A stretch of DNA of 64,000 nucleotides from Synechococcus sp. UW140 (GTDB taxonomy: Bacteria > Cyanobacteriota > Cyanobacteriia > PCC-6307 > Cyanobiaceae), in contig CALSAP010000015.1 of assembly GCA_943372935.1 (NCBI GenBank), forward strand, positions 1 through 64,000. The letters are read 5' to 3'. Shown piece by piece: positions 4,472-43,491 of this stretch. The notes beneath the pieces were generated by a model. That model did no database searches. It saw only the letters and a program-made list of their open reading frames with translations, and was not told where the DNA came from. The position numbers and the translations under genes were made by a program. Every line of letters begins with the position of its first letter. Position 1 is the stretch's first letter.

Positions 4472-4567
4472 GGAACGCTCCGGCGCTGAATCAGCCAAAT
4501 GGACACCCTGGCTCCCATCCTGAAGGCCATGAGGCCAGGGCGCCCAAAACGATCGGGGGCCTGAGCC

Positions 4568-4583
4568 TGTGAGCGATGTCACA
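4568..4583. promoter_or_regulatory. Perfect CRP-type palindrome TGTGA-gcgatg-TCACA in the divergent crp / tpsA-1 intergenic region
   Basis: Seen directly: tgtgagcgatgtcaca at 4568-4583. It sits about 53 bp upstream of the tpsA-1 ATG (4637) and about 97 bp upstream of the divergent crp start (4471). It matches the established CRP/SyCRP consensus TGTGA-N6-TCACA. Confidence 0.5.
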
Positions 4584-4636
4584 GCAAAGGCGATCCTGCT
4601 TCGCTTCAATGACAAATCTAGGGCGAGCCTGGCTCC

Positions 4637-7600
4637 ATGACGCAGCCGCCACGATCAGCATGGCAGGCATCGACAGCATGCCGGAAAGCCACCCGGATCC
4701 TGGCGCTGGTGCTGGCTCCCCTGCTCGCCGGTCCGGCAGGGGCCCAGGTGTCGAGCGGTGGCCTGGGCACGCTGGTCAACGGCTCGGCGGAAAGCAGTTG
4801 CGGATCCGGCGCCTGTCGCGTGGAGGGCGGCACGGCCGCGGGCGCCAACCTGTTTCATCGCTTCCGGCAGTTCGACACCCGCGGTGGCATCAGCGGCGTC
4901 AGCATTGACAGCCGCGGGCTGGCCAATGTGATCGTGGGGGTGACCAACCCGGCTGGCACCTTCCTCAACCGGCCCCTGAGCCTGACCCAACAGGCCAACC
5001 TCTTCTGGCTCTCCCCTGGAGGCATCTGGGTGGGTCCCGGAGCAGACCTGGTGCGCGTGTCGAACCTGCTGCTCACCACGGCCACGGCGCTGCCGCTGGA
5101 GGGAGGTGCCACCTTCGACGCCCTGCGGACCACGGCGCAGGAAGCCTCCGGCTACCCGGGCGCGCCGTCAACGGGCTGGACCACCCTCACCTCCCTGGCC
5201 AGCCTGGCCGACCTGGGGCTGAAGGAACCCGGCCCGATCGTGCTGGCTGGCGGCCGGCTCAGGGTGGATCGGTCCCTGGTCCTGGATGGCGCCAACGGCG
5301 ACGTGCGGTCGCTGACGGGTGCGGGAAGCCGACTCGAAGCCGGCGAACGTGTGCGTCTCAGCGGTCGGGCCCTGGATCTCGACGCTCTCACAATCTCGGC
5401 GGGTGAGCCCGGGCAGCGGGGGCCGGTGATCCTCCAGACCACCAGCAGCGCAACCGGCGAGGACAGCGGGGCGATCCGCCTCTCGAACAGCCACCTGGAG
5501 GGGAGCAAGGTCATCCTCCGGGCCGGGGCGGTGACGGTGGCCGGCAGCACACTGGCGGCACCCAAGGGTGTGATCCGGCTGGAGAGCACCAACACCCGTG
5601 GGGACAACGGGATCCTGCTCCGCAACGCCCGTCTCGATGTAGGGGTGCACACCCTTGAGGATCTGCGCGCGGACGGATCGGTCACCGTCGAGAAGCAGGA
5701 TGGCGCCATCGTGCGCCAGTCGGCGCCCACACCTCTGATCCATCTGTTCTCCCAGGGAGATGTGCAGGTGGAGGCCGACTCCACCCTCACGGCCAGCCAG
5801 GATCTGGGGCCGATCCGGGCGGCGCTGCTCAAAGAGACGGGGGCGTCCCTGGCCGAGGGCGACGTGAAGCTTGCGGGCACCAGCGGCAACGTGGTGCTCG
5901 ATGCCGCTGGAAGGATCGGCGTGAGCCGCAGCAGGCTGGTGGCCGATGCCAGCGACAACCTGGCCGGCAACATCGCCCTGGTGGCCAGGGGCGGCGAGGG
6001 CAGAGGCGGCATCGGCATCGAGCGCAGCACGCTCTCGGCCAGCGGCGGCGCCGGATCGGGCGATATCCGGCTGAGCAGCAGCGACGGGATCACGATCACC
6101 GGCGCCACGCTGCGCACCGAGAGCAGCCACGGCCCGGGATCCCGTGAGGGCGGCATCGACTGGGCAACCGGCTATCCCTTTGCAGCCGGGGAGATCACTC
6201 TCAGCAATGATTCCCCGACCCGGCCCGTGCTGATCAACGGAAGCCGGCTCGAAGCCACCTACCACACCCGTGAGGGTGGGCTGCCGGTGGGTTTTCCCAA
6301 CCCAGACGATGGGGGCACGACGCAGGTTCCTTTCGTGGACCTTCACGATGATCGCGATCTGATCGAGCTCAGCTTCGACCAGACCCTGGATCCACCCAGG
6401 CTCGCCGGCATCTTTCCCCGCAGCACGGTGGCCATCATCAGCGCGGGTGGCATCTCCATCTCGAACGGGTCGACACTCGATGCCGGCAGCCATCCCGCAG
6501 GCAGACCCGACCTCCTCGAGGCCTTAGGAGGCCGGGTGCTGGTCGTGAACACCGGCACGGGGCTGGGAGCCGGCGCCCTGAGCATCACGGACTCCACGCT
6601 CCTGAGCCGGGTGGACAGCGCCAGCGGCATCCGCTTCCCCAACCCGGAATTCCCGGACTCTTCTGCGCAGGAGAGCCTGCCGATCGGCGAGCCGGGCAGC
6701 GTGCAGCTCTGGAGCGCCGGCTCCCTGCGCCTGAGCAACAGCTCCGTGGATGTGGGCGATGCCGGCCGGATCATCCGTGCCGGTGATGCCATCGGCCCAC
6801 CCCCTTCGCCCGTGCGAGACCCCTATGCGCCCCCCGGGAGCCCGGATCCCCCCACCGCCCAGGCCATCCTGGAGCGGCTCGCCCTTGACAGCCGGGGCGT
6901 GGGGGAGAGCGCGAGACAGACGGTGATCGTGGATCCCGATAACCGGGTGAAGGTGGTGACCACCGATCCTGATGGCGGAATCACGGTGCTGCGCGATCCG
7001 AGCCCTCAGCTCCTCACGACCTTGGTAGGGGAGGCGCGGGCAGCCCTGCTCCCCCGCGGTCTGCTGACACCCCCGCTGATCGTCGCGGCCGGCCCCGGCG
7101 TCGGCCCAGCCGACAGCAGCCGGATCATCACCCCGCTGCGGCGGGAGTCCACCGCGCCGGCTCTCGCCACCAGCAGCATCGTCTCCATGCCCATCTCGGT
7201 CTCAAGCCTGGAAGCGGCGGAGGCCAGCCGAGCTTTCGCGCACGCGGAGGAGCGCTCCCGGCAGGAGACCATCGCTGGCCTGGGATTGGAGGCAGGACAA
7301 GCAACGGCGCCACCCAACAGCGAACAACTGCAACGGCAGCTGCAGCGCATCAGTGCTGCCCTCTCCCAGCCCAGTCAGCACAGGGCGACCTCCTACCGGC
7401 CGGCCATCGTGTTGCTCAACCTCAGCCGACGCGCCGGGGCGGACGCCGCCCTGGATCTTCTCTACCTGCCCCCCAGCGGCCCGATGAAGGGGTGGCGCGT
7501 GGAGATGCCGGAAGCGCAGCTGAGGGGTTGGATCACCACCTTCCAGCGACAGCTCAGTCGCATGGAGCCGTTCGATGGCAGCAGCCAAGGTGCAGGTCGC

Positions 7601-8497
7601 CAGCTCTCCAACCATCTGTTCACCCCCCTGCTGCCGACGTTGCGGCACGACGGCATCACGGCCCTGCTGCTCAGCGTGGACCGGGGGCTGCAGGCCATTC
7701 CCTATGCGGCCCTGCCTCTGGACGAAGGACGCCCCCTGGGTGAGGCCTTCTCCCTCACCCTTACCCCTTCCCTGGGCCTCACGGCACTCGATGCGGCGTC
7801 GAACCCGTCCGCAGGCCGCATGTTGCTGGCCGGTACCAGCCGCTTCCGCAACGGGCTTGCCGATCTGCCCCTGGTCCGTCAGGAACTGGAAACGTTGGCA
7901 GCCGAGCATCCCGCCGACATGCTGCTCGACGACGCCTTCAGCAGCGCGGCCCTGCTGGACCAGGCCGGACGCCGCGAGTACCGGCGCGTGCACCTGGCCA
8001 GCCATGCCGAGTTCCGCCCTGGCCACCCCCCCATCGCCCGGCTCTTCACCGCCACAGGCGACGTGAACATCACCCAGCTGGGACGGCGCCTGCAGAGCGA
8101 TCCGGCCAGGGGGAACGTGGATCTGGTGAGCCTGAGTGCCTGCCGCACCGCCCTGGGTGACGAGAGCAGCGAACTGGGGCTGGTCGGCCTTGCCCTGCGC
8201 ACCGGCAGCCGCAGCGGCCTGGGCACCCTCTGGTTCGTGGACGATGCCGCCAGCGCCGCCTTCTTCGTGCACTTCTACCGCCAGCTGGCCCGGGGCCTGC
8301 CCAAGGACGAGGCTCTCCAGTCCACCCGAAGGGCGTTCCGAAGCGGGGAGATCCGGGTCAGGGGCGACAGCCTGGTGGGCCCCGATGGCAGCCACCTGAT
8401 CCAGGGCCTGTCTCCGGGCGACAGGGCGCGCTTCGCCGAGGGCCTGAGCCATCCCTACTTCTGGGCCGGGGTGGTTCTCTCCGGCTCACCCTGGTAG
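4637..8497 (+). CDS. TpsA-type secreted exoprotein: N-terminal TPS (hemagglutination-activity) domain, beta-helical repeats and a C-terminal CHAT (caspase-like) domain
   Basis: Signal-like N-terminus. TPS motifs: [21 protein letters not shown] and ANLFWLSPGGIWVG (the NPNGI-type motif). The C-terminal CHAT signature has His (VHLASHAEF) and Cys ([13 protein letters not shown]) plus GLVGLALRTGSRSGLGTLWFVDD. Confidence 0.9.
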   Translation: MTQPPRSAWQASTACRKATRILALVLAPLLAGPAGAQVSSGGLGTLVNGSAESSCGSGACRVEGGTAAGANLFHRFRQFDTRGGISGVSIDSRGLANVIVGVTNPAGTFLNRPLSLTQQANLFWLSPGGIWVGPGADLVRVSNLLLTTATALPLEGGATFDALRTTAQEASGYPGAPSTGWTTLTSLASLADLGLKEPGPIVLAGGRLRVDRSLVLDGANGDVRSLTGAGSRLEAGERVRLSGRALDLDALTISAGEPGQRGPVILQTTSSATGEDSGAIRLSNSHLEGSKVILRAGAVTVAGSTLAAPKGVIRLESTNTRGDNGILLRNARLDVGVHTLEDLRADGSVTVEKQDGAIVRQSAPTPLIHLFSQGDVQVEADSTLTASQDLGPIRAALLKETGASLAEGDVKLAGTSGNVVLDAAGRIGVSRSRLVADASDNLAGNIALVARGGEGRGGIGIERSTLSASGGAGSGDIRLSSSDGITITGATLRTESSHGPGSREGGIDWATGYPFAAGEITLSNDSPTRPVLINGSRLEATYHTREGGLPVGFPNPDDGGTTQVPFVDLHDDRDLIELSFDQTLDPPRLAGIFPRSTVAIISAGGISISNGSTLDAGSHPAGRPDLLEALGGRVLVVNTGTGLGAGALSITDSTLLSRVDSASGIRFPNPEFPDSSAQESLPIGEPGSVQLWSAGSLRLSNSSVDVGDAGRIIRAGDAIGPPPSPVRDPYAPPGSPDPPTAQAILERLALDSRGVGESARQTVIVDPDNRVKVVTTDPDGGITVLRDPSPQLLTTLVGEARAALLPRGLLTPPLIVAAGPGVGPADSSRIITPLRRESTAPALATSSIVSMPISVSSLEAAEASRAFAHAEERSRQETIAGLGLEAGQATAPPNSEQLQRQLQRISAALSQPSQHRATSYRPAIVLLNLSRRAGADAALDLLYLPPSGPMKGWRVEMPEAQLRGWITTFQRQLSRMEPFDGSSQGAGRQLSNHLFTPLLPTLRHDGITALLLSVDRGLQAIPYAALPLDEGRPLGEAFSLTLTPSLGLTALDAASNPSAGRMLLAGTSRFRNGLADLPLVRQELETLAAEHPADMLLDDAFSSAALLDQAGRREYRRVHLASHAEFRPGHPPIARLFTATGDVNITQLGRRLQSDPARGNVDLVSLSACRTALGDESSELGLVGLALRTGSRSGLGTLWFVDDAASAAFFVHFYRQLARGLPKDEALQSTRRAFRSGEIRVRGDSLVGPDGSHLIQGLSPGDRARFAEGLSHPYFWAGVVLSGSPW

Positions 8498-8553: not shown

Positions 8554-9786
8554 ATGCCTTCCCCCCGCCGCCGCAGTTCACACCCCCGCACCGCCTGGCT
8601 CATTGGCTGCCTGGCCGTCCTTGTGCTCACCCTTCTGGGGGCCTGGACGGAACCCGCCCAGGCCCAGGACGAGTACTGCGTGAGAACCAATGCGCTCTGG
8701 ACGACACCGTGCACAACATCTGTACGGGTGGACAGCCTGATGGACACCTATTTCTGGTCGCCCAAGAGCCAACCAGCCTCCAACATAAGCATCAGCATTG
8801 GGCCCACTCGAAATGTGAAAGTGTCAAAGATGACACTTCACGGGCCAAGCACGATGCGCCTGAATGCAACAGGCTCATTGCAACGGGAAACACTGATCGG
8901 CAGTCTTGGCAATAACACCCTGACGGGTGCCGGCGGCGGCGACACCTTCGTGATCGGCAACGAAACATCCGTCACCAGGAACCTGGCAAACTGCTCCCCC
9001 ACGAGCATCAACGACTGCGTCTACCGCATCAGCCCTGGCCAGGAAACAGATACCGTGAACATCAGTGGATTTAATGGATCTCCCGATGGGGTCGATATCG
9101 TTTACATCAACAAATGTCTTCAGCTCGTGGCCACTGGGAATCCTGGAAAGGGTGGCGACGCCATCCGTTCAGCCGTCGCTTCCCCCGGGCTCGACAACCA
9201 GGGATTCCCCCAGCAGCCCATTCCCCTCACCGAACCCATGGCGGTGAACTGCCGCATGGGGGGAACTTCCCTGATCCGTTCGTTCACCGGTCAGCTATCC
9301 GATGGCAACGCAGGCCTCTTCGAATCGCTGTGCACAAAGCTAAGGAATATCCTTCGTTTCATCCACTTCAAGCTGACCGGTCGGCTTCCCCTCTATGTCG
9401 GCACACCGCGGATCGTTCAGCCAGCCAGCTTCGGGGGGGCGGAGGGCGATCGCATCGTCATCGAAGCGGAGGGCCTCCGCTTCAATGACGCTCCCCTCAC
9501 CCCTGAGCAGACGGAGGTGTTCGTGCAGGCGCGCAACCGAGACCCCGTCGCCGAGGGCAGGGCACTGATCTACCACCAGGAGATGGGCGTGCTGGCCGCC
9601 TATGGGACCGACCGGGCTGCCTACGGAAGCGAGGCCAATCCCGGCAGCGTGATCGCCCAGCTGGTGCGGCCGGGAGGACGGGCCCTGACGATTGACGCGG
9701 GAATCAGCCCGGACGCGCTCGACTGGGTGAGCCTGGTCCCGCCCGTTCCCCCCGGAGCGGGGGAATCCCCTTCTCCGGCCGGCTGA
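8554..9786 (+). CDS. Hypothetical secreted protein with an RTX-like GGxGxD calcium-binding motif (low-GC insert)
   Basis: Signal peptide (MPSPRRRSSHPRTAWLIGCLAVLVLTLLGAWTEPAQA). One hemolysin-type nonapeptide-like motif (GNNTLTGAGGGDTFVIG). Local GC is clearly lower than its surroundings (roughly 8700-9400). It sits between tpsA-1 and tpsB-1. Confidence 0.6.
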   Translation: MPSPRRRSSHPRTAWLIGCLAVLVLTLLGAWTEPAQAQDEYCVRTNALWTTPCTTSVRVDSLMDTYFWSPKSQPASNISISIGPTRNVKVSKMTLHGPSTMRLNATGSLQRETLIGSLGNNTLTGAGGGDTFVIGNETSVTRNLANCSPTSINDCVYRISPGQETDTVNISGFNGSPDGVDIVYINKCLQLVATGNPGKGGDAIRSAVASPGLDNQGFPQQPIPLTEPMAVNCRMGGTSLIRSFTGQLSDGNAGLFESLCTKLRNILRFIHFKLTGRLPLYVGTPRIVQPASFGGAEGDRIVIEAEGLRFNDAPLTPEQTEVFVQARNRDPVAEGRALIYHQEMGVLAAYGTDRAAYGSEANPGSVIAQLVRPGGRALTIDAGISPDALDWVSLVPPVPPGAGESPSPAG

Positions 9787-9792
9787 GCGCCG

Positions 9793-11496
9793 ATGCTGCT
9801 CCTGCTGGCCCAGCTCGTTGCCCCGCCCCTGCAGCCAGGGCCGGCTCGACTGCCCGGGCCGGCCACCGAAGAGCAGCGAGACGGACCCACACGGCCGCCG
9901 CAGCCCCCACGGCTGCTGCGCCTCCCCCCCGATGAGCCGGCCCCCGGGAGCGAACCACCGCCGGGCGGTCCCCTGGAACTGCCCCCCCCAGCGGGGTCCG
10001 AGGGCCTGCTTCCTCAGGTGCATGGGCTGAATCGCTACGACGCCAAGGAGCTGCACCGGATCCTGGCTCCCTGCGGCGCCATCACCGATGCGGCGACCAG
10101 GCTGCGGGCCTGCGCCGCCGCCCTCAGCAGCCGGCTGTCGGCGGACGGCTACGTCAACAGCAGGGTGTACCCCCTGGCTGATCCCCCCCCAGGCCGGCTG
10201 GAGGTGGTGGAAGGGAGGATCGCCGAGGTGCGGATCGAAAGTGACAGCCCGCGGCTGGCCCGTCGGCTGCGCCAGCTGCTGCTGCCCCTCAGGGGCACGG
10301 TGCTGCACCTGCCCAGCCTGGAGCGCACCGTGGCCCAGCTGCAACAGCTGGGCGGCGTGGGGCAACTGGAGGTGAGCCTCAACCGGCTGGGCAGTGACTC
10401 CACCCGTGCCGTGCTGGACGTGAGCGCCGAACCGGCCCCGCAGCCGTTAAGGGGCGAGATCTCCCTGCGCAACGATGGCAACAGCGGCAGCGGTCAGTTC
10501 CGTGCCCTGGCCACCCTGGTGAAGACCGATCTGGTCCTCGATGGCGACATCCTGCTCCTGTTCGGCGAGCTCGATGGCGACCAGAATCCCGACCTGGGCT
10601 ACAGCCTCGCGTCGCTCAGCTACAGCCTGCCCCTGGGTGATCGCCTGAGCCTCACCACAGCCTTCGGGGCCAGCCGCCGCAACCTGGTCGAAGCCCTGGG
10701 ACCTTCGGAAGACCTGTCGTTCCGACAGTTCCAGTTGCTAAGCCAGCTGGAGGTGACCCTGGCCTCATCGCTCACCAGGCGCTGGTATGGCTTCGCCGCT
10801 CTGAGCCTGAACCGAACCGACTCCTACCTGGCGGGCCAAGCCCTGCCACTGGTGACCGGAGCCGGTGCCGACGGGTGGGTTGGCAACGGCTTCCTGCGGG
10901 TCGGACTGGGGGCAGAGGGCGGGGGCGAGCGACTTCAGTGGGCCGCCAGCGTCTTTGGTTTGCAGGGGATCGCCTGCTTCAGCACCGCCGAACAGCTCCA
11001 GAACCAGGCCTTTTTCGGCATCCGGCCCGGTGAGGCTCGCGCTGCGGGAGGCCAGATCTACGGCCAGTGGCGCATCGGGCCACGCTGGCAGCTGGAGCTG
11101 CGCGCCGCCTTCCAGCAGGCCTTCACGCCCCTCACCAGCCCGATGGGCCTGAGCCTCGGCAGCGACAACGGGCTTCGGGGTCTCCCGGGCCAGGTGGTGA
11201 GTGGCGACAGCGGTCTCCTGGGAGCGCTCGAACTGAGCTGGACCGCCTGGCGCAAGCACCAGGCGGAGATCCAGCTGGTGCCGTTTCTCGGAGCGGGCCA
11301 GGTCCACACCCGTTTTCCCGAGGGCAGTTTCAGCGAAAGCATCGCCGCAGGTGGCCTGCTGGTGCGCTGGCTCCAGGGCCGCCACTGGCAGATGGAACTG
11401 GGCTGGGTCTCCCAGTTCGGCGATGGGTCCCGGTCGTACTGGAACGACTGGCTCCTGGGCAGCGGTCTCTACTCCAAGCTGAGTTACCGCTTCTGA
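9793..11496 (+). CDS. TpsB transporter (ShlB/FhaC/HecB family; POTRA plus Omp85-like barrel), partner of TpsA-1
   Basis: Polypeptide-transport POTRA region, a beta-barrel with alternating hydrophobic residues and a C-terminal ...SKLSYRF ending in aromatic F. It is paralogous to the ORFs at 34746 and 41797, and all three share the N-terminus M(S)LLLLAQLVAPPLQ.GP.RLP. Confidence 0.85.
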   Translation: MLLLLAQLVAPPLQPGPARLPGPATEEQRDGPTRPPQPPRLLRLPPDEPAPGSEPPPGGPLELPPPAGSEGLLPQVHGLNRYDAKELHRILAPCGAITDAATRLRACAAALSSRLSADGYVNSRVYPLADPPPGRLEVVEGRIAEVRIESDSPRLARRLRQLLLPLRGTVLHLPSLERTVAQLQQLGGVGQLEVSLNRLGSDSTRAVLDVSAEPAPQPLRGEISLRNDGNSGSGQFRALATLVKTDLVLDGDILLLFGELDGDQNPDLGYSLASLSYSLPLGDRLSLTTAFGASRRNLVEALGPSEDLSFRQFQLLSQLEVTLASSLTRRWYGFAALSLNRTDSYLAGQALPLVTGAGADGWVGNGFLRVGLGAEGGGERLQWAASVFGLQGIACFSTAEQLQNQAFFGIRPGEARAAGGQIYGQWRIGPRWQLELRAAFQQAFTPLTSPMGLSLGSDNGLRGLPGQVVSGDSGLLGALELSWTAWRKHQAEIQLVPFLGAGQVHTRFPEGSFSESIAAGGLLVRWLQGRHWQMELGWVSQFGDGSRSYWNDWLLGSGLYSKLSYRF

Positions 11497-13452: not shown

Positions 13453-14036
13453 GCCGGCAGACCCTCGGCCAGGTGCTGGAGGGAGAAGGCCCCCAGCAAT
13501 GGAGCGGTGGCCACGGACGTGCCGCAGGCCCTGGCCAGAATCCTCAACTGGTCCGTCACCTGTCGATCCTCCCCCCTCGGCGCGGTCGAGGGTGTCGGCG
13601 GCTCGAGCCAGGTTCGGGCCGGTGGCGCAGTGGCGCTCTCCATGTCGGCGCCGCAGAGGGGAAAGCTCTCCCACAGCAGTCCACGGGACACGGCAGGAAT
13701 GGTCAGCAGCCTCACCCCCGTGGGCCTGGCGGCGAGAGTCCACTCACCGATGAGGCCCAGCTTCACCACCAGTGGAGTGGGGCGGGGAGCGGTGCCCTCC
13801 AACAGGGCGATGGTGCTGCCGGGACCGGGTGCGAAGCGGCCGCTGCTCGGCACGAGGTGAGCCAGACGGCGTGACTCGCAAGGGTCGCGGCTGCCACCGG
13901 ACTCCCTGTTCATGGGAAAGGATTTCGTGCGATCCTTGGCGACGGCTGCTGGGATGGACAGGCCAGCAGAGAGATTCGCCAGCAGTCCGACCGCCAGCGC
14001 CAGGTAGATCGTTCGGGAAAGAGCGGCTGAGTCCAT
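13317..14036 (-). CDS. Small secreted protein, DUF928-like paralog family member (copy 1, degenerate)
   Basis: Paralogous to the ORFs at 28435..29220 and 36997..37653 (shared RLAHLVPSS, W.S..C and a C-terminal LPVRC). The family motif FPGRRVGGGTRGEC is degraded here to FPMNRESGGSRDPCE. A 3' extension past the family's normal stop overlaps the convergent cyclase by 136 nt. Confidence 0.5.
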   Translation of the reverse strand: MDSAALSRTIYLALAVGLLANLSAGLSIPAAVAKDRTKSFPMNRESGGSRDPCESRRLAHLVPSSGRFAPGPGSTIALLEGTAPRPTPLVVKLGLIGEWTLAARPTGVRLLTIPAVSRGLLWESFPLCGADMESATAPPARTWLEPPTPSTAPRGEDRQVTDQLRILARACGTSVATAPLLGAFSLQHLAEGLPAQLPVRCEPLEASSASGSGPSISSQISTAEERPDSALLPQQNQRP

Positions 14037-34745: not shown

Positions 34746-36479
34746 ATGCTGCTCCTTCTCGCCCAGTTGGTAGCCCCGCCCCTACAGGACGGCCCGGTCC
34801 GCTTACCAGGTCCCCCCCGTCAGCTGGAGCGGCCATCCCCCGATGTGACCCGGCCTCCTGATCCTGTGGACATCAGGCCCCTCGAGGCACCGGCGCGCGA
34901 TCCAGATGTCAAGCAGCCGGCCCCCGCCACCCCGGAACCGCCCTCTCAACCACCGCCATCCGAGACACCCACCTCAGAGCCGGCGAGCCCCCTGCCGGAA
35001 ATCCGGGGGCTGACGCTCTACAGCCCTCTCCAGGTGCGCGAGATCCTGGCCAAGTGCAGCAGGATCGCCGATCCCCAGGAGCTCCTCAAGGCCTGCGCCG
35101 CTGCCCTCAGCGCCAGGCTCGTCTTCGATGGGTATGTCAGCAGCCGCGTCTACGTGGTGAGCGAGCCTGCGCCTGGGTACCTTGAGGTGGTGGAAGGTCG
35201 GATCGTTGGGATCCAGGTGTCCGGCCGCGATCCGTTGCTGAACCGTCGTGTCGGACGGCTGCTTAACCCCCTGCGGGGCCAGATCCTGCGGCTGAGCAAT
35301 GTGGAGCAGCAGTTGCAGCTGCTCAAGCAGCAGCCAGGCATCGAGAGCGTGCGGGGCACCCTGGCGCGGTTGGGCAGCGATCCCTCCGAAGGGGTGTTCC
35401 GGGTCGCCGTGGAACCGGCCAGCGAACCCTGGCAAGGGGATCTGGCACTGCGCAACGACGGCACCAGCGGTTCGGGCGAGTTTCGGGCCGTGGCCACGCT
35501 GCTCAAACCCGGCCTGCTGCGGCGCGGGGACACCCTGCTGGTCTACGGCGAGCTTGATGCCACCGACACCCCCGAACTGGGGGCGGCCATCGCCTCGGTG
35601 AGTTACACCTACCCCTTCAGCGACACCTTCAGCCTCACCGGTGGTTTCGGTTTCAGCCGCCGCAACCTGGTGGAGCTGCCGGCACCGGTCGACGGGTTCT
35701 CCACCAGCCAGTTCCAGGCCCTGGCCCAGTTCGAATGGGTGTTCCGCGAATCCCTCAGCCAGCGCTGGAGCCTCTTCGCCGGCTACAGCAACAGCCGCAG
35801 CAACACCTACGAACAGGGCGCCGTCCTGCCGGCCGCCGTCCCCGACAGTGTCCGCAGCCCAGCCGGCGGCTACCTGCGCTTCGGCGTCAACGCCAGCGGG
35901 CTCAGTCGCCGCGCCAGCTGGAATGGCAGTGCCTACCTGCTGCAGGGTGTCACGGCCGCGACCCCGGCGGTCCAGCGCCAGCAACTGGCAGAGGCGGGCA
36001 TTGCCGTGGGTGGGGCCACCGCCATCGGTGGCTTCCTCTCCGGCTCCTGGACCGTGGCACCCCGCTGGCAGCTCAACCTGCGAACCGCCGCCCAGCTGGC
36101 CTTCGCCCCGCTCACCTCATCGATGCAGTTCACCCTCGGCTCCGATGTGGGGCTGCGGGGCCTCCCCGGCCAGCTGATCAGCGGCGACAGTGGCTGGCTG
36201 GCCAGCACCGAAGCGGTGTGGACCTTCTGGAACGGCAAGACCAGCGCCCTCCAGCTCGTGCCGTTCATCGGCGCCGGCGGCATCCGCACCAACTTCAACG
36301 GTGGCTCCTTCGGCGACACGGTGGGGGCCGGTGGGGTGCTGGTGCGCTGGCTGGCCAGCAACAACTGGACGGTGGAACTTGGCTGGGCCCAGCCGTTCTC
36401 CACCAACGACAACTTCGGAGTCTGGAACGACTGGCTGCTGGGACAGGGCCTTTACACCAAGGTCAATTACCGATTCTGA
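34746..36479 (+). CDS. TpsB transporter (ShlB/FhaC family), partner of TpsA-2 (divergently transcribed)
   Basis: Paralog of 9793..11496; conserved MLLLLAQLVAPPLQ N-terminus; C-terminal ...TKVNYRF. Confidence 0.85.
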   Translation: MLLLLAQLVAPPLQDGPVRLPGPPRQLERPSPDVTRPPDPVDIRPLEAPARDPDVKQPAPATPEPPSQPPPSETPTSEPASPLPEIRGLTLYSPLQVREILAKCSRIADPQELLKACAAALSARLVFDGYVSSRVYVVSEPAPGYLEVVEGRIVGIQVSGRDPLLNRRVGRLLNPLRGQILRLSNVEQQLQLLKQQPGIESVRGTLARLGSDPSEGVFRVAVEPASEPWQGDLALRNDGTSGSGEFRAVATLLKPGLLRRGDTLLVYGELDATDTPELGAAIASVSYTYPFSDTFSLTGGFGFSRRNLVELPAPVDGFSTSQFQALAQFEWVFRESLSQRWSLFAGYSNSRSNTYEQGAVLPAAVPDSVRSPAGGYLRFGVNASGLSRRASWNGSAYLLQGVTAATPAVQRQQLAEAGIAVGGATAIGGFLSGSWTVAPRWQLNLRTAAQLAFAPLTSSMQFTLGSDVGLRGLPGQLISGDSGWLASTEAVWTFWNGKTSALQLVPFIGAGGIRTNFNGGSFGDTVGAGGVLVRWLASNNWTVELGWAQPFSTNDNFGVWNDWLLGQGLYTKVNYRF

Positions 36480-36996: not shown

Positions 36997-37641
36997 TCAG
37001 GAGGGGCAGCGAACTGGTAGCTGATCGGGCCAGCCATCCTTCAGCAGATCAGCCAGACCGAAGGCGGCACCCAGCTCAGCCCGACTCACTGTGCCGCCGC
37101 AGCGACCCTTGAGGCCTTCTAGCCGTTCGCGGATCCCAGCATCCTGAGGCGTGACGTCCTTCACCAGCAGGCTGATGGCAGGGGGTGAGGACGTCGACAC
37201 CACCTGCAGCTGATCGTCGGTGGAAGCTGCGCCCCCGCCGCAGAGATATCTCGATTGCCACAGGGTGGGGCCTGACAGGGGTGTGCCGCTCAGAAGAACC
37301 AGGGCAGGGGGGCCTGGAGGCAGCAGGCGCTGGGCCGGTGGTGCCGATACGCCCATCAGGCTGAACTGGACGAGCAGGGGATGCAACACACTGGCGGGTC
37401 CTTCCAGAAGGCCCAACAAAGGCGCGTCGCTGGGGGCGAACACACTTGACTCCGGCACGAGATGCACGATCAAGCGGGAAGAGCATTCGCCGCGGGTGGC
37501 GCCAGCCACCCGCCTGCCGGGGAATGTGGTGCGGGGGCTGGCCTGGACGGCGCTGCCAGCCATCAGCCAATCCACCTTGGCAAGCCCGAGGTTGAAAAGA
37601 CAGAGAAGCGACAGAGAGCGCAGCGAGAACGAATAGCGCAT
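36997..37641 (-). CDS. Small secreted DUF928-like paralog (copy 3)
   Basis: Signal peptide (MRYSFSLRSLSLLCLFNLGLA), TFPGRRVAGATRGECSSRLIVHLVPESSVFAP, WQSRYLC, ending ...LPVRCPS. Confidence 0.6.
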   Translation of the reverse strand: MRYSFSLRSLSLLCLFNLGLAKVDWLMAGSAVQASPRTTFPGRRVAGATRGECSSRLIVHLVPESSVFAPSDAPLLGLLEGPASVLHPLLVQFSLMGVSAPPAQRLLPPGPPALVLLSGTPLSGPTLWQSRYLCGGGAASTDDQLQVVSTSSPPAISLLVKDVTPQDAGIRERLEGLKGRCGGTVSRAELGAAFGLADLLKDGWPDQLPVRCPS

Positions 37642-37646
37642 CGATG

Positions 37647-40600
37647 TCACCATGGGGAGCCCAGCAGGGAGATCGCCGCCCAGAAGTAGGGATGGCTGAG
37701 CCCAGAGCGGATGTTCTGGCTCTGGGCTATCGATAGATCCTTTAGCAGGGTTGTGCCATCGGGGGCCAGCACGCGGTTGCCATCCAGGCGGATCCGGTTG
37801 GCAATCAGGTCCTGCCGGAGCGCCCGGACTGCTTCAGCCTTTGGGAAGCCCTGATCCAAATAGCGGTAGAGCTGAAGGAAGGCCGCTGATGTGGCGGCAT
37901 CGTCCACGTACCAAAGGGTGCCAATGGCGCTGCGGGCTCCGGCCTGCAAGGCCAGCCCGGCAAAGCCGAACTCAGCATTGCTGTCCCCCACGGCCGTGCG
38001 GCAGGCGCTGAGACTGAAGAGATCGAGGAGATCACCCTCACGTCGATTGCGCATACGCGCGAATTCTTGGAACGACACAATGCCTGCTCCTGTATGAATC
38101 AGTCCATACTTCGGGTCGCCCGGCAGAAACTCGGCGTGGGTGGCCACATGCACGCGGTCATAGCGTGCCTCGGCAGCTTGATTAAGTAGCACGCTGGGGG
38201 TGAAGAACTGATTGAGGAAGGCATCCGCCGGTCGCTGAGCGGCAATGCCATCAATTTCCTGACGCACCAGAGGCAGGGCCGCCAGCCCTTTAAAGCTGGA
38301 GGCCCCGGCGGCCAGAAGCCGGGACGATTCAGCCTTGGGAGGATTCAGGCAGGTGAAAAACAACGACGGTGTGACCGAGAAGGCGTAGCGCTCGCCGAAG
38401 CTGCTGCTACCGTCGTGCAGGGCCGCAAATGGAACCGAATGCAGGCCGCGATCGGTGCTGATCAAGAGGCTGGTGATTCCGTGCGCCTGAAGATCTGCCT
38501 CGATCGGTGCAACCAGGGCACCGTGGAGCTGGCGAGCCGGCGAAGAGGGATCCGCTGGGTCGTATGGTTCGCGGGACGCGACTTGGTTGTAGAAGCTCTT
38601 CAGCAGGGTGCGGAATCGCTCCAAGGACAGCTGCACCCGCTGACTCTCTGGTTGCCCCTGGCTTGTGATCAGCGTCAGGTCGAGAAAGGCCTGATCGGCT
38701 GTCGCAGCGCCACTGCCGGTGACTTGCCTCTGGGTGAAGGCCAGGCTCAGGATCGCCGGCTGATAGGCCTTGAAGCGCTCTCCTGGGCGGCCCCTGATCT
38801 GGCGCTGGGCAGCCTGTAACTTCGATTGCAGAGTGGCTGTCGTAACTTCCGACATGCCACATTCTGGCCGCATTACATCCGGCAGGGAGGCTGTCACATC
38901 GTCGCTTCGCTGCGCCTCCACCTCCCACAGCTGGGTCTGGGATAGGGAGATTGGCAGGGGAGCGATACTGGAAATTAAGGTCTGAGATGTGCTCCCACCC
39001 CCGAAACGGCTGGGTGAGGATTCGGCAGCGGCCGGATCAGCAGGGTTGAGGTTATCCACGAGCTGGGCCGGCGTGGCGGGCGCGATAAGCCGCGTCGCGA
39101 AGGTCAACGATGGTTGGCTTGACCAGGGAGGCAGGATCGGCCGATTGGCCTGGTTGAAGATTTCCACAAAGGCCGTGGCGTCAGCCGCTGCTAGCGCCTG
39201 ATCCGCAGCATTCAGCGATGGCGGTGCAGTCGCACTCAGGATCACATCCTGGAGATTGGCGTTGAATCGTTCCATAAAGGTGGCGGTCGCCGGCGCCGCT
39301 GGCGGCGACGGGGGTGGTACCTCACCCAGGATCACGGCCTGGGGATTGGCGGCGATGCTGCCGCTCCCCCCGAGCGAGCCAATCACGATCGAGGATTGGC
39401 TCTGCAGCGAAAGGGCCGTGCGATTTTCAAGGTTTCCTGCAAAGTTGATGCTGGATCCTTCGCCGGTCGTGGTCAGTTGGAGAGCGGCTGGCAGTGGGTC
39501 TGGACTGAACAGATTCAACGGCAGCAAGGAGGAGGCTTCGATCGAATCCACCTGCATTGAGGCCCCTACAGCTTGGCCGCCTGTACCATCGTAGGAACCG
39601 GTGGCGTAAACGAATTTGTAATTGCCGATGGCATCGGAGGGCGCCAGAGTCACCGCGGATGTAATCCAGCCGCTGTTGGTATTGTCTTTTGACCAGCTTC
39701 CAATTCTGTCAGCGCTTGTGTTGTATTGCTGCAGGACGTTGTCGATGCCACCTTGGTTCCAAGCCGCGGGCACACTGCCGCCTGATGAATTGAGCAGGCT
39801 GATCGTTCTGCCAGTGCTTGGCTCCAGCAGAAAGGCATTGACATTGTAATCATCATTGGCGCCCGAGGCGGTCCATTTGAATGTCACCGTGTCGCCAGGT
39901 CCCAGGAAGACAGTGCCCTTGGAGACGACGTAGGGGCCCATGATGATGCAGCTTCCTGTGTTGCAGAAGAAGTTGCCGGTCTCCAATAGAAGGGACTGCG
40001 TGTTGCCTGGTGTGGAATCACCGGTCAGTGTGGAGCTTCTGACCCTGAGCGTACGGGTTTCATTACTGCCACAGTTATCAAAGCAGGGTGCCAGTCGAAT
40101 GGCATTTCCCTGGCCGACCCCGGAATTGGCGCCAGCTTCGATGTCAAGGACATTGCGGGTATCATTCGGTACCCGCATCCCATCGACGCGCGAGCTGCTG
40201 GCTTGGGGGTTGAGACCAAAGACAAGCGGCCCAAGATACACATCCCAGCCATCGATTTGAGCAGGGGTGATTACAGTGGAGTCTGATTCCAGGCCAATCT
40301 TACTTGGCCCTGACAAGTCAAATTGCGCAGCATCAAAACCGTTGTTTGTGAACGCCCCCACGCCTTTAACGCCAACAGAAGCATCATTGAAATAGAGCTG
40401 ATTACCAAGCGTTGTTGTATTGGCATTGATGAAGGTGCGACCCAGGCGGCTACTACTCGACCCAACCACAAGGCTGTTGAGAGGAGCACTGGCACCGACC
40501 TCACGATTGAACACCAGCCGTCCGAGCGGGGATCCGAGGTCTACCTGCAGGCTCCCTGGCCCATCCACCCTGCCGAAAAAGCCGATCCCACCGGACCCAG

Positions 40601-41609
40601 ATGGGTCGGTTCTGAGGGCAAACAGATTGTTGGCATTGATCGACACATTGCCCCGGTAAATCTGATCGCCTTCAGAGAAGATACTGACCAGTGGGCTATC
40701 GATGGTGATCTGCTCGGTGGCCTCCAGCAGAACGTTTGAACCCATGCCGGTCGTCCTGATATCTGAGCGTAATTTGATGTGCTTCCCAAGCACGGCGACG
40801 CTCTGCGCCGCCAGCGGCTGGTCACCTCCCAGCAGCACGTTGCCACCCTTCGCATCCAGCAGCAGGCTCCGATTCACTGTCAGCAGGCCGCCATCGATGC
40901 TCAGATCCCCGTTGTTCAGCAGCCCCAGCCCACCCAGCGTGGCGGCTTCGCTGACCAGGCCGGCGCCACCCGGCAGCGGCGCACCGCTCAGCAACCCGGC
41001 CTGTTGCGCCGTGGTGTTTCTGACATCGAACACCCCTGAACCGATCTGTAGGCCGGTTGCCGTGCTCAAGGTGAGGTTGGTGACGTTCTGGAACTGGCCG
41101 CCAGCCTGCAGGGTGATCCCCGCGGGTGAGAGCCAGAACAGGTTGCCCGGCGCTCCCAGGGCCACCGGCTTGTCGATGAAGGTGGGGCTCAAAACCCCCA
41201 CCACCAAGGTGTTGAAGCCTCTGTTCTGGAAATTCACCCCGCTAATCGCGCCACGGGTGTCGAAGGCATCGAAGCGGTGGATCAGGTTGCCGCCTGCTCC
41301 GGTGCCACCGGTCACCAGGCAGGCCCCAGTGGTGCAGGCCGTGCCACCGTTCACCGCGGTGCCAAGGCCGGCAGGACCAGAGGTCGCCGTGATTTCGCCT
41401 GCAGGAACCGCTGTCGCGCCAGCCATAACCGCTAGCAGCGTCAGAACCTGGAGCCCCGATCGTGGAAACAGGGTTGGACCCGTTGAACGGCCAGGCGCCA
41501 CGGCCTTGGCCTGGCCACGCCGCCGCTGCCGCCTGGACGAAGGGGCTGGATCCATGACCGAACCAAATCCTTTCAGCAAACCAACTATGAACTCATCTCT
41601 ACAAGCCAC
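37647..41609 (-). CDS. TpsA-type exoprotein with TPS domain, beta-helical repeats and a C-terminal CHAT domain (third copy)
   Basis: GAGGNLIHRFDAFDTRGAISGV and GNLFWLSPAGITL TPS motifs. CHAT His/Cys (VHVATHAEF; FSLSACRTAVGDSN) with [20 protein letters not shown]. The start within the first about 60 codons is uncertain. Confidence 0.9.
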   Translation of the reverse strand: MACRDEFIVGLLKGFGSVMDPAPSSRRQRRRGQAKAVAPGRSTGPTLFPRSGLQVLTLLAVMAGATAVPAGEITATSGPAGLGTAVNGGTACTTGACLVTGGTGAGGNLIHRFDAFDTRGAISGVNFQNRGFNTLVVGVLSPTFIDKPVALGAPGNLFWLSPAGITLQAGGQFQNVTNLTLSTATGLQIGSGVFDVRNTTAQQAGLLSGAPLPGGAGLVSEAATLGGLGLLNNGDLSIDGGLLTVNRSLLLDAKGGNVLLGGDQPLAAQSVAVLGKHIKLRSDIRTTGMGSNVLLEATEQITIDSPLVSIFSEGDQIYRGNVSINANNLFALRTDPSGSGGIGFFGRVDGPGSLQVDLGSPLGRLVFNREVGASAPLNSLVVGSSSSRLGRTFINANTTTLGNQLYFNDASVGVKGVGAFTNNGFDAAQFDLSGPSKIGLESDSTVITPAQIDGWDVYLGPLVFGLNPQASSSRVDGMRVPNDTRNVLDIEAGANSGVGQGNAIRLAPCFDNCGSNETRTLRVRSSTLTGDSTPGNTQSLLLETGNFFCNTGSCIIMGPYVVSKGTVFLGPGDTVTFKWTASGANDDYNVNAFLLEPSTGRTISLLNSSGGSVPAAWNQGGIDNVLQQYNTSADRIGSWSKDNTNSGWITSAVTLAPSDAIGNYKFVYATGSYDGTGGQAVGASMQVDSIEASSLLPLNLFSPDPLPAALQLTTTGEGSSINFAGNLENRTALSLQSQSSIVIGSLGGSGSIAANPQAVILGEVPPPSPPAAPATATFMERFNANLQDVILSATAPPSLNAADQALAAADATAFVEIFNQANRPILPPWSSQPSLTFATRLIAPATPAQLVDNLNPADPAAAESSPSRFGGGSTSQTLISSIAPLPISLSQTQLWEVEAQRSDDVTASLPDVMRPECGMSEVTTATLQSKLQAAQRQIRGRPGERFKAYQPAILSLAFTQRQVTGSGAATADQAFLDLTLITSQGQPESQRVQLSLERFRTLLKSFYNQVASREPYDPADPSSPARQLHGALVAPIEADLQAHGITSLLISTDRGLHSVPFAALHDGSSSFGERYAFSVTPSLFFTCLNPPKAESSRLLAAGASSFKGLAALPLVRQEIDGIAAQRPADAFLNQFFTPSVLLNQAAEARYDRVHVATHAEFLPGDPKYGLIHTGAGIVSFQEFARMRNRREGDLLDLFSLSACRTAVGDSNAEFGFAGLALQAGARSAIGTLWYVDDAATSAAFLQLYRYLDQGFPKAEAVRALRQDLIANRIRLDGNRVLAPDGTTLLKDLSIAQSQNIRSGLSHPYFWAAISLLGSPW

Positions 41610-41796
41610 TCAGGAAAAGCACCAATCAAGCAACAAACCAAAACCTGCTAGGTCAGAAGCAAACATTCTTGTTCATCGAAAATGTAGCCATAAGCACTTT
41701 TCATGGGCCGTGCCATTGCAACGGCAGTCACGCGCCCAACCGACCAATGGTTGGAAAACACGATCTAATGGGGAACTTTAGATAGCACAACTGGCC

Positions 41797-43491
41797 ATGT
41801 CTCTGCTGCTGCTGGCCCAATTGGTCGCTCCTCCCCTACAGCAGGGGCCGGTCCGATTGCCGGAAACCAGGCCAGCCCAGGAACGTCCTGCGCCCTCCCA
41901 GGAGCAGGAGTCGCCCCCCGGTCTTGAGGTCGAACCTGGCATCGCTCCGCAGTCCCTGCCACCTGAGGCGATCCCGGCCCGGCCGGCCCCAACCCCGCCC
42001 CTGAGCGCACTTCCAGCTGTCGAGGGACTAACCCTATACAAAAAACAACAACTGTTCTTGATCCTGGGCCGTTGCAGCGCCATCGCCGATCCGGCAGAGC
42101 GCCTCAACGCCTGCGCCGCCGCCCTGGGCTCCAGGTTGGTGGTCGATGGCTACGTCAACAGCCGCGTTTATGCCGAGCCCACCCCGGCGCCCGGAAGGCT
42201 GGTGGTTGTGGAGGGGCGGCTGGTGGAGCTGAGGGTCAATGGCAATGGGCCCTGGCTGAATCGGCGAATTGACCGGCTGATGCGCTCGCAGCAGGGTCGT
42301 GTGCTGCACATCCCCTCGCTCGAGAGAAACCTGCAACTGCTGCGCCGCATCCCAGGGGTCAAGCAGCTGCGCGCCAATCTCTCCCGCCTAGGCAGTGATC
42401 CCACCCAGGCCACCCTCACGATCGACGTTGAGGCTGGGGGACCGCGTTGGCAGGGAGACCTGGCGCTGCGCAATGACGGCAACAGCGGCTCCGGCGACGC
42501 GCGCATTCTGGCCAGCCTGCTGAAGCCCGGTGCCCTCACCGCCGGCGACAGCCTGCTGCTCTACGGCGAGCTCAACGGCAAGACCGATCCCCAGCTCGGC
42601 CTCGGGCTTGTGTCGCTCAGCTACAGCCTGCCACTTGGTGACTCACTCAGCTTCACCACAGCCGTCGGCTTCAGCCGCCGCAACCTGATTGAGCTTCCCA
42701 GGCCGGAGTTCTCCAACGAGCAGTTCCAGGCCCTCGGCCAGCTGGAGTGGATTTTCTCTGAAAGCCCCACCCAGCGCTGGAGCACTTTTCTTGGCCTCAG
42801 CGGCACGGTCAGCGCCAACTTGATCGATGGGCAGTCGCCGCCCTCTCTTCTGCCGGAGATCCTTCGGAATCCTCAGAGCGGCTACCTGCGCCTGGGGGTC
42901 AGCGGCAGCGGCCAAGGGCTTGGGTTCGGATGGGGCGGAACGGCCTATTTTCTGGCGGCGACACCCGGCCTGATGCCCGGTCATCAGGTGTCGGAGTGGC
43001 GCCAGGCCGGCATCGACCCAGCCGGAGCCTGCGCCATCGGAGGACTGATCTCCGCCTCCTGGGCCTTTGCCCCCCGTTGGCAGCTCAATGGCCGCCTGGC
43101 CGGGCAGTGGGCCTTTAATCCCTTGTTGCCGCCCATGCAGTTCAGCCTGGGCTCAGATGTGGGGCTGCGCGGGCTGCCCGGCCAGTTGATCAGCGGCGAC
43201 AGCGGCTGGCTGGTTGTGACCGAGGCTGCCTGGACCTTCTGGCAGGACCGGACTCATTCCCTGCAGCTGGTGCCGTTCCTCGGAGCCGGTGGGATCCACA
43301 CCCAGCTGAACAGCTTCAACGTCACGGAAACCATGGGATCCGGTGGATTGCTTGTGCGCTGGCTGGCTGGCAACAACTGGGCCTTCGATCTGGGCTGGGC
43401 CCACCAGTTCACCAGTGGTAACGTCCAAGGCCCTTGGAACAACTGGGTCCTGGACAACGGTCTCTACGCCAAGGTGCACTACCGCTTCTGA
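41797..43491 (+). CDS. TpsB transporter (ShlB/FhaC family), partner of TpsA-3 (divergent)
   Basis: Paralog of the other two TpsB genes; N-terminus MSLLLLAQLVAPPLQQGPVRLP; C-terminal ...AKVHYRF. Confidence 0.85.
   Translation: MSLLLLAQLVAPPLQQGPVRLPETRPAQERPAPSQEQESPPGLEVEPGIAPQSLPPEAIPARPAPTPPLSALPAVEGLTLYKKQQLFLILGRCSAIADPAERLNACAAALGSRLVVDGYVNSRVYAEPTPAPGRLVVVEGRLVELRVNGNGPWLNRRIDRLMRSQQGRVLHIPSLERNLQLLRRIPGVKQLRANLSRLGSDPTQATLTIDVEAGGPRWQGDLALRNDGNSGSGDARILASLLKPGALTAGDSLLLYGELNGKTDPQLGLGLVSLSYSLPLGDSLSFTTAVGFSRRNLIELPRPEFSNEQFQALGQLEWIFSESPTQRWSTFLGLSGTVSANLIDGQSPPSLLPEILRNPQSGYLRLGVSGSGQGLGFGWGGTAYFLAATPGLMPGHQVSEWRQAGIDPAGACAIGGLISASWAFAPRWQLNGRLAGQWAFNPLLPPMQFSLGSDVGLRGLPGQLISGDSGWLVVTEAAWTFWQDRTHSLQLVPFLGAGGIHTQLNSFNVTETMGSGGLLVRWLAGNNWAFDLGWAHQFTSGNVQGPWNNWVLDNGLYAKVHYRF

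Follow-up and report, generated by a model that had tools for sequence, protein, structure and literature searches.

Why should a picocyanobacterium encode, side by side and in several copies, an exported caspase-like protease, its Omp85-type transporter, a small secreted protein, and a membrane-bound nucleotidyl cyclase? The question is raised by the first 64,000 nucleotides of contig CALSAP010000015.1 from Synechococcus sp. UW140 (hereafter the window), in which three such modules, two of them with a cyclase of their own, lie between positions 4,472 and 43,491. A preliminary description, drawn from the sequence, had read the repetition as one functional system, in which the activity or product of the protease is sensed by a periplasmic CHASE2 domain and converted into a cyclic nucleotide signal. 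The analysis reported here leads to a related proposal: a conserved cyanobacterial envelope signalling module, in which the small secreted protein (S) would partner the CHASE2 domain, the exported CHAT protease would modulate this pair, and cAMP would be the output. We consider this reading somewhat better than even (probability about 0.55). The functional linkage of the CHAT, two-partner secretion (TPS), S/DUF928, and CHASE2 genes, as judged from gene neighbourhoods, is well supported.

Gene calls in the window combined Pfam searches with a filter for GC content at third codon positions (GC3); every open reading frame (ORF) listed in the preliminary description has coding-type GC3. Each module is built around a large exoprotein: TpsA1 (4637-8497, plus strand), TpsA2 (29601-34646, minus strand), and TpsA3 (37647-41609, minus strand). 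All three contain the CHAT domain attributed to them (Pfam E-values 3e-47, 2e-53, and 5e-46, respectively), and the matches to PF12770 cover the full length of the model. The His/Cys dyad is intact: its motifs (VHVATHAEF ... LSACRTA; H1519 and C1564 in TpsA2) show no variation across the three window copies and 27 homologues. Structure prediction for the TpsA2 C-terminus (365 residues; AlphaFold2, pLDDT 80) returned a caspase/CHAT fold, whose best Foldseek match is Csx29 (E 7e-11); DdvA (ranks 13-14), SAVED-CHAT proteins, caspases, and separase are among the other top matches. A sequence search of the PDB with the CHAT and CHASE2 domains gave no matches. CHAT is the best-conserved portion of TpsA.

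The assignment of these proteins to the TPS pathway stands, on evidence other than a Pfam match. In TpsA1 and TpsA2 the Pfam TPS domain scores 24-25 bits against a gathering score of 33.5, and in TpsA3 nothing is found by Pfam, the support there coming from alignment and profile. The three N-termini share 44-52% mutual identity, align with a bona fide TPS domain (at locus L088, E 2e-46), and contain NLFHRF and NLFWLSPGGI motifs; a profile of the three matches the HMW1 secretion domain 2odl (E 5e-7). A signal peptide is predicted on TpsA. By these sequence criteria the TpsA proteins carry an N-terminal TPS domain, and so are predicted passengers of TpsB. (NCBIfam gave no match for the three TpsA proteins, TpsB1, S2, or the 410-residue protein of module 1 discussed below.)

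Some relatives encode short CHAT-only proteins of about 420 residues, which were considered as an argument against TPS export. This argument was set aside: one of them (P0234) has its own signal peptide, and another (P0205) resembles a truncated gene call within a longer TpsA region, so CHAT stays extracytoplasmic. On the chromosome of Cyanobium sp. NIES-981 (locus L095, 7358-11410), a CHAT gene is called as 469 residues and has no signal peptide; this call is probably truncated, or the gene broken, because sequence resembling a TpsA N-terminus occurs 2 kb upstream, with the same orientation. Within tpsA2 itself, positions 31126-31965 (minus strand) encode a Pro-Thr/Pro-Ala linker of about 280 residues (TPTPTPAP...) by means of a tandem array based on 6-nt units, which accounts for the GC-skew spike at 30-32 kb. 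This linker would keep the CHAT domain distant from the TPS stalk.

Next to each TpsA stands the expected cognate TpsB, an Omp85-type transporter: TpsB1 (9793-11496), TpsB2 (34746-36479), and TpsB3 (41797-43491), all on the plus strand. The three share 47-53% mutual identity and match ShlB with E-values of 3e-10, 2e-12, and 2e-11; their POTRA_2 matches are weak, under the Pfam gathering score in all three. The TpsB N-termini (9793-9860, 34746-34810, and 41797-41860) share the pattern MLLLLAQLVAPPLQ.GP.RLP followed by a Pro-rich stretch, and contain no obvious Sec signal peptide.

The third component is S, encoded on the minus strand in all three modules: S1 (13317-14036), S2 (28435-29220, downstream of tpsA2), and S3 (36997-37653). 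The paralogy claimed for these proteins is real (BLASTP E 2e-57 between S2 and S3, and about 1e-20 between S1 and the others), and all three share signal peptides and four invariant Cys residues. Their assignment to DUF928 in the preliminary description failed as a direct match and survived as remote homology. Pfam finds nothing in S1-S3 even at E-values up to 10, nor in ten distant members of the S family at up to 1; as a control, seven DUF928 proteins from plasmids match PF06051 with E-values down to 1.5e-60. A bona fide DUF928 set was assembled from cyanobacterial plasmid loci and by homology search. Comparison by hhalign of 38 S proteins with 32 DUF928 proteins gave 89.9% probability (E 1.7e-6) over 85 columns of the N-terminal β-sandwich; with only the seven DUF928 proteins the values were 45% and 2e-4, over 143 columns.

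The alignment registers PGRRvGGGTRGEC of S with P..ggGg.RG.C of DUF928, and W.S.Y.C with Y.W....C. R88 and C91 of the RGxC core are invariant across the 38 S proteins; of their DUF928 counterparts, R47 is nearly invariant in the 32 proteins and C50 is invariant in the seven from plasmids. In S2 this core lies within the conserved motif FPGRRVGGGTRGEC near the N-terminus of the mature protein (28948-28989, minus strand). The C-terminal halves differ: S has a subdomain with two extra invariant Cys residues, DUF928 a helical segment with YAxNGIWYxAL. An AlphaFold2 model of S2 has pLDDT 79. The sequences point to a small Sec-exported, disulfide-type β-sandwich protein, and by profile comparison S is remotely homologous to DUF928, outside the Pfam family threshold. 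A word-indexed search gives the S family 49 clusters; among 1.84 billion proteins the family has 174 representatives at 50% identity, and none of its members found bears a Pfam annotation. Named S homologues and loci are all picocyanobacterial, apart from a few records of metagenome-assembled genomes (MAGs) with non-cyanobacterial titles, which we took as mislabelled.

The fourth component is a class III nucleotidyl cyclase headed by CHASE2 (PF05226). Two cyclases coupled to S had been described, and both were recovered: cyclase 1 (11497-13452, plus strand; CHASE2 E 5.5e-43, Guanylate_cyc E 2e-17) and cyclase 2 (26529-28481, plus strand; 5e-46 and 1e-17). A third, at 16267-18147 on the minus strand (7e-26 and 3e-17), had been overlooked. 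Hydrophobic segments follow the CHASE2 domain in the cyclases and in cyclase 3 precede it as well, consistent with CHASE2 as the periplasmic part of a membrane receptor fused to the cyclase. Alignment to 2w01 and 6fht shows complete catalytic residues in all three: the metal-binding Asp pair, Asn, and Arg. All three also have Lys at the purine-specifying position (VNKFTGDG / VDKFIGDA), where the guanylyl cyclase Cya2 has Glu. Of the two products first suggested, cAMP and cGMP, the Lys therefore favours cAMP, and cGMP is the less likely; the enzymes probably make cAMP.

Cyclases 1 and 2 pair with S, and cyclase 3 with two FecR-like secreted proteins (22358-23452 and 23457-24254, minus strand), which have signal peptides, weak FecR matches, and 57% identity to one another. 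Their position upstream of cyclase 3 is conserved, and in the related loci L001-L024 FecR-like genes precede the cyclase on one strand. Potential receptors for the nucleotide are encoded beside the cyclases: an MscS-like channel fused to a C-terminal cyclic nucleotide monophosphate (cNMP)-binding domain (25048-26529, plus strand; MS_channel, and cNMP_binding E 2e-22), and a CRP-like protein (3353-4615, minus strand; cNMP_binding E 2.5e-16) divergent from tpsA1. The latter ORF is probably over-extended at both ends. Its likely start is Met48, near 4474, and its C-terminus is doubtful because it reads through the antisense of a relic of speA (see below).

The couplings within the window are close. 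The tpsB1 stop abuts the cyclase 1 start, the stop of the MscS-cNMP gene overlaps the cyclase 2 start, and the S3 start overlaps the tpsA3 stop. S1 converges with cyclase 1 through a 136-nt overlap (13317-13452) and S2 with cyclase 2 through one of 47 nt (28435-28481); an S1 orthologue (P0049) has the same arrangement with its cyclase. Such 3' overlaps suggest antisense or transcriptional interference between the two genes. Identity across the module copies is 35-53%, which rules out a recent duplication or an assembly repeat, and for every component modules 2 and 3 resemble one another more than either resembles module 1. By this divergence the copies are old paralogues.

Is the grouping conserved elsewhere? 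One genome per GTDB species was scanned, giving 136 S-encoding stretches, of which 80 were compared with the window proteins by tblastn over at most 10 kb of flank. Freshwater Cyanobium and Synechococcus are represented among them, as are marine Synechococcus and Prochlorococcus MIT 0707. Of the 76 loci with downstream sequence, 72 have a CHASE2 cyclase abutting S; the two genes are convergent in 66 of the 76, mostly with a 3' overlap of 30-40 nt. The MscS-cNMP gene adjoins the cyclase on the same strand in most loci. Where both flanks extend to 8 kb or more (35 loci), TpsB is present in 31, a TPS N-terminus in 29, CHAT in 26, and both TpsB and CHAT in 25. The common order is alaS, TpsB, TpsA-CHAT, S, cyclase, MscS-cNMP, SIMPL, FecR-like, cyclase, speA. 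Some lineages instead have TpsB and TpsA on the far side of the S-cyclase pair, or beside the second cyclase; the placement of these genes varies, and thus the proximity survives rearrangement. Read against this order, the window is a core picocyanobacterial locus with two extra, diverged modules.

One of these extra modules has its own history. A direct repeat of 197 bp brackets module 1: positions 3575-3770 (plus strand), a relic copy of the speA 5' region, are 82% identical to 14327-14522 within speA (blastn E 3e-50). By this signature module 1, including the CRP-like gene, is an inserted island of roughly 10.6 kb. Two metagenome contigs (L097 and L098) carry an orthologous set at another genomic site, near a DNA ligase gene: the CRP-like protein (58% identity), TpsA-CHAT (42%), TpsB (59%), the cyclase (58%), and a convergent S1-type gene (52%). 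The L097 counterpart of the CRP-like protein, in the same position, is a cNMP_binding+HTH_Crp_2 protein. The protease, its exporter, S, the cyclase, and a cAMP receptor thus travel as one unit. The set also includes the 410-residue secreted protein encoded between tpsA1 and tpsB1 (8554-9786, plus strand), which has a signal peptide and in Pfam a weak RTX match only; its homologue at the same position in L097 is 29% identical (E 9e-16), and none was found in the 80 picocyanobacterial loci.

More distant cyanobacteria provide a second line of evidence. Seven plasmid loci were chosen solely because tblastn matches to CHAT and CHASE2 lay a few kb apart, so that the adjacency of these two domains was selected for, and the presence of DUF928 is an independent observation. 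A DUF928 gene lies between or beside CHAT and CHASE2 in all seven. The Gloeothece PCC 7424 plasmid has the order CHAT, DUF928, CHASE2, and the Nostoc TCL26-01 plasmid DUF1822, CHASE2, DUF928, CHAT. Of two plasmids in Nostoc flagelliforme, one adds TpsA and the other a response regulator. The Nostoc C052 plasmid (L086) encodes a sigma-70 family sigma factor, DUF1822, and a CHASE2 protein, then DUF928, CHAT, and TpsA; the Calothrix NIES-4105 plasmid encodes a LuxR regulator, CHASE2, DUF928 (4-nt overlap), and TPR-CHAT. In the Pseudanabaena ABRG5-3 plasmid, ShlB, a CHASE2 kinase, TpsA, TPR-CHAT, and DUF928 follow one another on a single strand. In Calothrix, Nostoc, and Gloeothece the DUF928 and CHASE2 genes share a strand and adjoin or overlap one another. 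(A tblastn search of plasmids with the TPS domain gave no match, and the best plasmid CHAT match, in Nostoc NIES-3756, was rejected for its unrelated context.)

Nine further loci were seeded on DUF928 proteins only. A Nitrospira MAG has TPS, ShlB, TPR-CHAT, and DUF928 genes; among single contigs, one has TPS and TPR-CHAT flanking DUF928, another TPS adjoining DUF928, and another TPR-CHAT 4 kb off. The pairing of a CHASE2 cyclase with DUF928 extends to L094, a contig with proteobacterial features. The separate TPR-CHAT proteins carry signal peptides. Single proteins with an N-terminal CHAT and a C-terminal CHASE2 domain are encoded beside DUF928 once in Crocosphaera and twice in Nostoc, a domain-fusion argument for linkage; DUF1822 is found alongside in these fusion loci (L086, Nostoc C052; L090, Crocosphaera watsonii; L093, a Nostoc MAG). 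The CHASE2 output varies (cyclase, the Pseudanabaena histidine kinase, fused CHAT) while DUF928 is constant. The metagenome contig L100 (6393-8843) has a DUF928 gene that lacks a CHAT or CHASE2 neighbour and lies 2 kb from a Peptidase_C14 (metacaspase-like) and GUN4 protein, either by coincidence or as a possible further pairing with the caspase family.

The results leave none of the grounds that had been named for rejecting the idea altogether. The CHAT and CHASE2 domains are confirmed and the S proteins are true paralogues. The co-occurrence extends well beyond one strain: it is found across picocyanobacteria and, with DUF928, in Nostocales, Chroococcales, Pseudanabaena and, in part, a Nitrospira MAG. 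The notion that three repeats make one system gains from this recurrent linkage; what it had left out are the FecR-like partners, the cNMP receptors, and the insertion of module 1 as an island.

The signalling module that we propose would operate as follows. TpsB would export the TpsA-CHAT protease. In the periplasm, S would serve the CHASE2 domain as ligand or co-receptor, a role suggested by the S-cyclase adjacency, the tightest at these loci, and by the parallel with cyclase 3 and the Burkholderia CHASE2 kinases, which have FecR-like partners. The exported CHAT domain, either in periplasmic transit or at the surface, would alter the state of S, most likely by cutting it close to, or exactly at, the invariant RGxC Arg. 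The choice of this residue is a guess, from its conservation and the preference for Arg or Lys known for clan CD relatives (metacaspases, gingipains, and separase); the GRRVGGGTRGEC loop of the S proteins may be a CHAT substrate, as first suggested. The CHASE2 cyclase would turn altered S into cAMP, which would gate the MscS-like channel and drive CRP-type transcription. For cyclase 3, the FecR-like periplasmic proteins would fill the partner role. Because S-cyclase pairs are found without CHAT, and DUF928-CHAT loci without CHASE2, the protease may modulate the pathway without being required for it. A bolder version would make DUF928-family proteins in general the missing partners or ligands of CHASE2, switched by exported CHAT cleavage, and the whole a bacterial protease-activated receptor pathway; we advance this tentatively, and think it rather unlikely.

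Several observations weigh against the proposed module. S-cyclase pairs at L079, L038, and L033 have no CHAT or TPS within 10 kb; L094, a contig with proteobacterial features (flagellar and sigma-54 genes), encodes a CHASE2 cyclase and DUF928 with no CHAT. Conversely, no CHASE2 is found at the DUF928-CHAT loci L089 (Nitrospira) and L099, and two of the nine DUF928-seeded loci contain none of the partners. Module 3 consists of TpsA, TpsB, and S, without its own cyclase. Picocyanobacterial synteny could stem in part from shared descent. The CHAT domain and S may never meet, since a TPS passenger lies outside the outer membrane and S is predicted to be periplasmic. In the fusion proteins CHAT precedes the first transmembrane helix and is thus predicted to be cytoplasmic, with CHASE2 periplasmic, so that CHAT looks there like output rather than input. 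Finally, at the second position of the adenine-specifying pair (Lys plus Asp/Thr), Thr occurs only in cyclase 3; cyclases 1 and 2 have the non-canonical Gly and Ala, respectively, which makes the nucleotide uncertain.

S and the CHASE2 cyclase might instead form a self-sufficient periplasmic sensor, with TpsA-CHAT and TpsB as a separate surface protease or adhesin sharing the same variable island between alaS and speA. S and the cyclase form by far the tightest pair (72/76 loci), they occur without CHAT or TPS at the four loci just named, module 3 dispenses with the cyclase, and the position of TpsB and TpsA relative to the pair shifts between lineages. A mere sharing of an island does not account for the renewed meeting of CHAT, DUF928, and CHASE2 on plasmids of distant cyanobacteria, or for the existence of CHAT-CHASE2 fusion proteins. 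Nor does it account for the ties of S to the protease genes (the stop-start overlap of tpsA3 and S3, and S2 following tpsA2 on the same strand), or for an island, module 1, that carries TpsA, TpsB, cyclase, S, and the CRP-like gene jointly. We regard two independent systems as unlikely, though it is the strongest of the alternatives.

A different reading takes the enzymatic C-terminus at face value: in contact-dependent inhibition (CDI) or polymorphic-toxin competition, the CHAT domain would be delivered to neighbouring cells, S would protect the producer in the periplasm, as immunity protein or inhibitor, and the modules would record an arms race. The gene order fits, with TpsB, TpsA with an enzymatic C-terminus and, in modules 2 and 3, a small gene immediately downstream; so do the parallel divergence of TpsA, TpsB, and S over the three modules and the island behaviour of module 1. 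What is expected of a toxin is lacking: the CHAT tip is the best-conserved part of TpsA and no variable toxin, and the toxin-demarcation motif was not seen. S in turn is a conserved protein with a signal peptide, from a family associated with CHASE2 sensors, and the cyclase and cNMP receptors would be left unexplained. We consider competition of this kind quite improbable. Least probable of all is an alarm against phages or grazers of the Pycsar or EACC2-caspase kind, in which CHASE2 senses attack and a cNMP-gated MscS-like effector arrests or kills the cell: PADLOC matches the cyclase and cNMP domains to Pycsar PycC and effector models and CHAT to BovA of Borvo, caspase-CHASE2 fusions with extracytoplasmic function (ECF) sigma factors and DUF1822 are classed among conflict systems (Kaur et al. 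2021, PMC8195603) and adjoin DUF928 in Nostoc and Crocosphaera, and DdvA, with its periplasmic CHAT domain, regulates a defence island (PMC11506125), but the PADLOC matches are domain-level only, the locus holds a fixed chromosomal site between housekeeping genes in the picocyanobacterial loci compared, even those of streamlined marine lineages, unlike typical defence islands, neither an ECF sigma factor nor DUF1822 is found among the window ORFs scanned, and the purine-specifying Lys favours cAMP over cCMP or cUMP.

The surroundings of the modules deserve brief mention. The window has a GC content of about 68%, its genes have their nearest relatives in Cyanobium, Synechococcus, and Aphanothece genomes, as befits a Cyanobium-type picocyanobacterium, and an Rfam scan of it gave no matches. 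The modules lie among housekeeping genes, with speA at 14228-16264 (plus strand) and alaS at 43563-46451 (minus strand); flavodiiron and desaturase genes are also encoded in the window. A SIMPL/DUF541 secreted protein (24254-24958, minus strand; Pfam E 7.5e-19) is a conserved member of the core locus. An insertion of 4.2 kb (18148-22357; GC 54-62%) splits the FecR-like genes from cyclase 3, which in related genomes are only about 100 bp apart. It contains an ORF with a beta/gamma-crystallin / inhibitor I36 domain (18559-20103, minus strand) and an insertion sequence (IS) element (19968-21234) with perfect 19-nt terminal inverted repeats (19968-19986 and 21216-21234) and a transposase in two ORFs, DDE_Tnp_1_assoc and DDE_Tnp_1; the element appears to truncate the 5' end of the adjoining crystallin ORF. 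Just outside the module region, 46304-48199 (minus strand) encodes a glutaminase fused to STAS and cNMP-binding domains, and 48289-50292 (minus strand) a GAF/HD-GYP-type protein.

If the proposed module is real, an extracellular or envelope event would be converted into cAMP in globally abundant picocyanobacteria (Cyanobium, Synechococcus, and low-light Prochlorococcus), and a cAMP input pathway would be in hand for organisms important in lakes and oceans. Exported prokaryotic CHAT proteases would acquire a role, and DUF928 its first functional context. Many bacterial kinases, cyclases, and diguanylate cyclases have at their head a CHASE2 domain, a type first defined some two decades ago. Papers of 2016 (PMC5192318) and 2023 (PMC10581220) both stated the ligands of CHASE2 to be unknown; S, encoded almost always against a CHASE2 gene, is a concrete candidate partner. 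In the open-access literature we found no paper joining the CHAT domain with two-partner secretion, none joining CHASE2 with the CHAT domain, and for DUF928 only a WD40 survey.

How, then, does the locus compare with known systems? Its export arm resembles type Vb secretion (FhaB/FhaC, HMW1/HMW1B, ShlA/ShlB, CdiA/CdiB) in the NLFH.F and NLF.L.P.GI motifs, the extended signal peptide, and an adjacent Omp85-type TpsB with a ShlB barrel and weak POTRA_2. It departs from that pattern in that the passenger ends in a conserved CHAT domain, rather than an adhesin, cytolysin, or variable toxin, and in its coupling to a secreted DUF928-like protein and a CHASE2 cyclase. Unlike the immunity proteins of CDI and polymorphic toxin systems, S is conserved, has a signal peptide, and is not predicted to be cytoplasmic, and the CHAT tip that it accompanies is itself conserved. 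The small secreted protein shares with DUF928 (PF06051) the N-terminal β-sandwich core, the RGxC and W..C features, a signal peptide, and a position beside CHAT and CHASE2; it differs in falling under the family threshold and in its Cys-containing C-terminal subdomain. With Pycsar there are domain-level PADLOC matches only, the window cyclase being a CHASE2 membrane receptor with an adenine-type Lys.

Among CHAT proteases, the best structural match of the window domain is Csx29 of Craspase, a CHAT protease that reportedly cleaves Csx30, a small protein encoded by a neighbouring gene, as a signal. Craspase is cytoplasmic and RNA-activated and has a sigma-factor output, whereas the window protease is predicted to be exported, has no CRISPR genes nearby, and would act through a cyclase. 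A closer parallel in location is the DdvA/DdvS system of Myxococcus xanthus, in which a transmembrane anti-sigma factor has a periplasmic TPR-CHAT domain (PMC11506125). DdvA also matches in structure and has an extracytoplasmic CHAT domain that serves transmembrane signalling. Its His-Cys site is incomplete, and it is the membrane protein itself and frees an ECF sigma factor; in the window the dyad is intact, the protease is a predicted TPS passenger, and the putative receptor is a separate CHASE2 cyclase.

Two further systems combine CHASE2 with related partners. EACC2-caspase proteins have variable C-termini that include CHASE2, and are encoded with an ECF sigma factor and DUF1822 (Kaur et al. 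2021, PMC8195603); the text of that paper contains no occurrence of 'two-partner', 'periplasm', or DUF928. The caspase/CHAT and CHASE2 families are common to both, and such fusions adjoin DUF928 in related Nostoc and Crocosphaera loci. The window ORFs scanned contain no fusion, DUF1822, or ECF sigma factor; the CHAT domain is predicted to be extracytoplasmic, on TpsA, and the probable output is cAMP. The Burkholderia 'BiofilmReg' operon encodes a FecR/LysM protein together with a CHASE2 histidine kinase and a response regulator (PMC5192318). Here, too, the gene for a CHASE2 receptor is accompanied by one for a secreted periplasmic partner, as for window cyclase 3 and its FecR-like partners; the output runs through a kinase and a response regulator, a FecR/LysM protein takes the place of the DUF928-like one, and there is no protease or TPS. 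The ties to caspase-CHASE2 fusions and to periplasmic CHAT signalling of the DdvA type suggest that protease signalling at the envelope may form a single wider class. TPS export, CHAT signalling proteases, and CHASE2 receptors are each of a known kind; their combination is undescribed in the literature searched, the DUF928/S component being the novel part.

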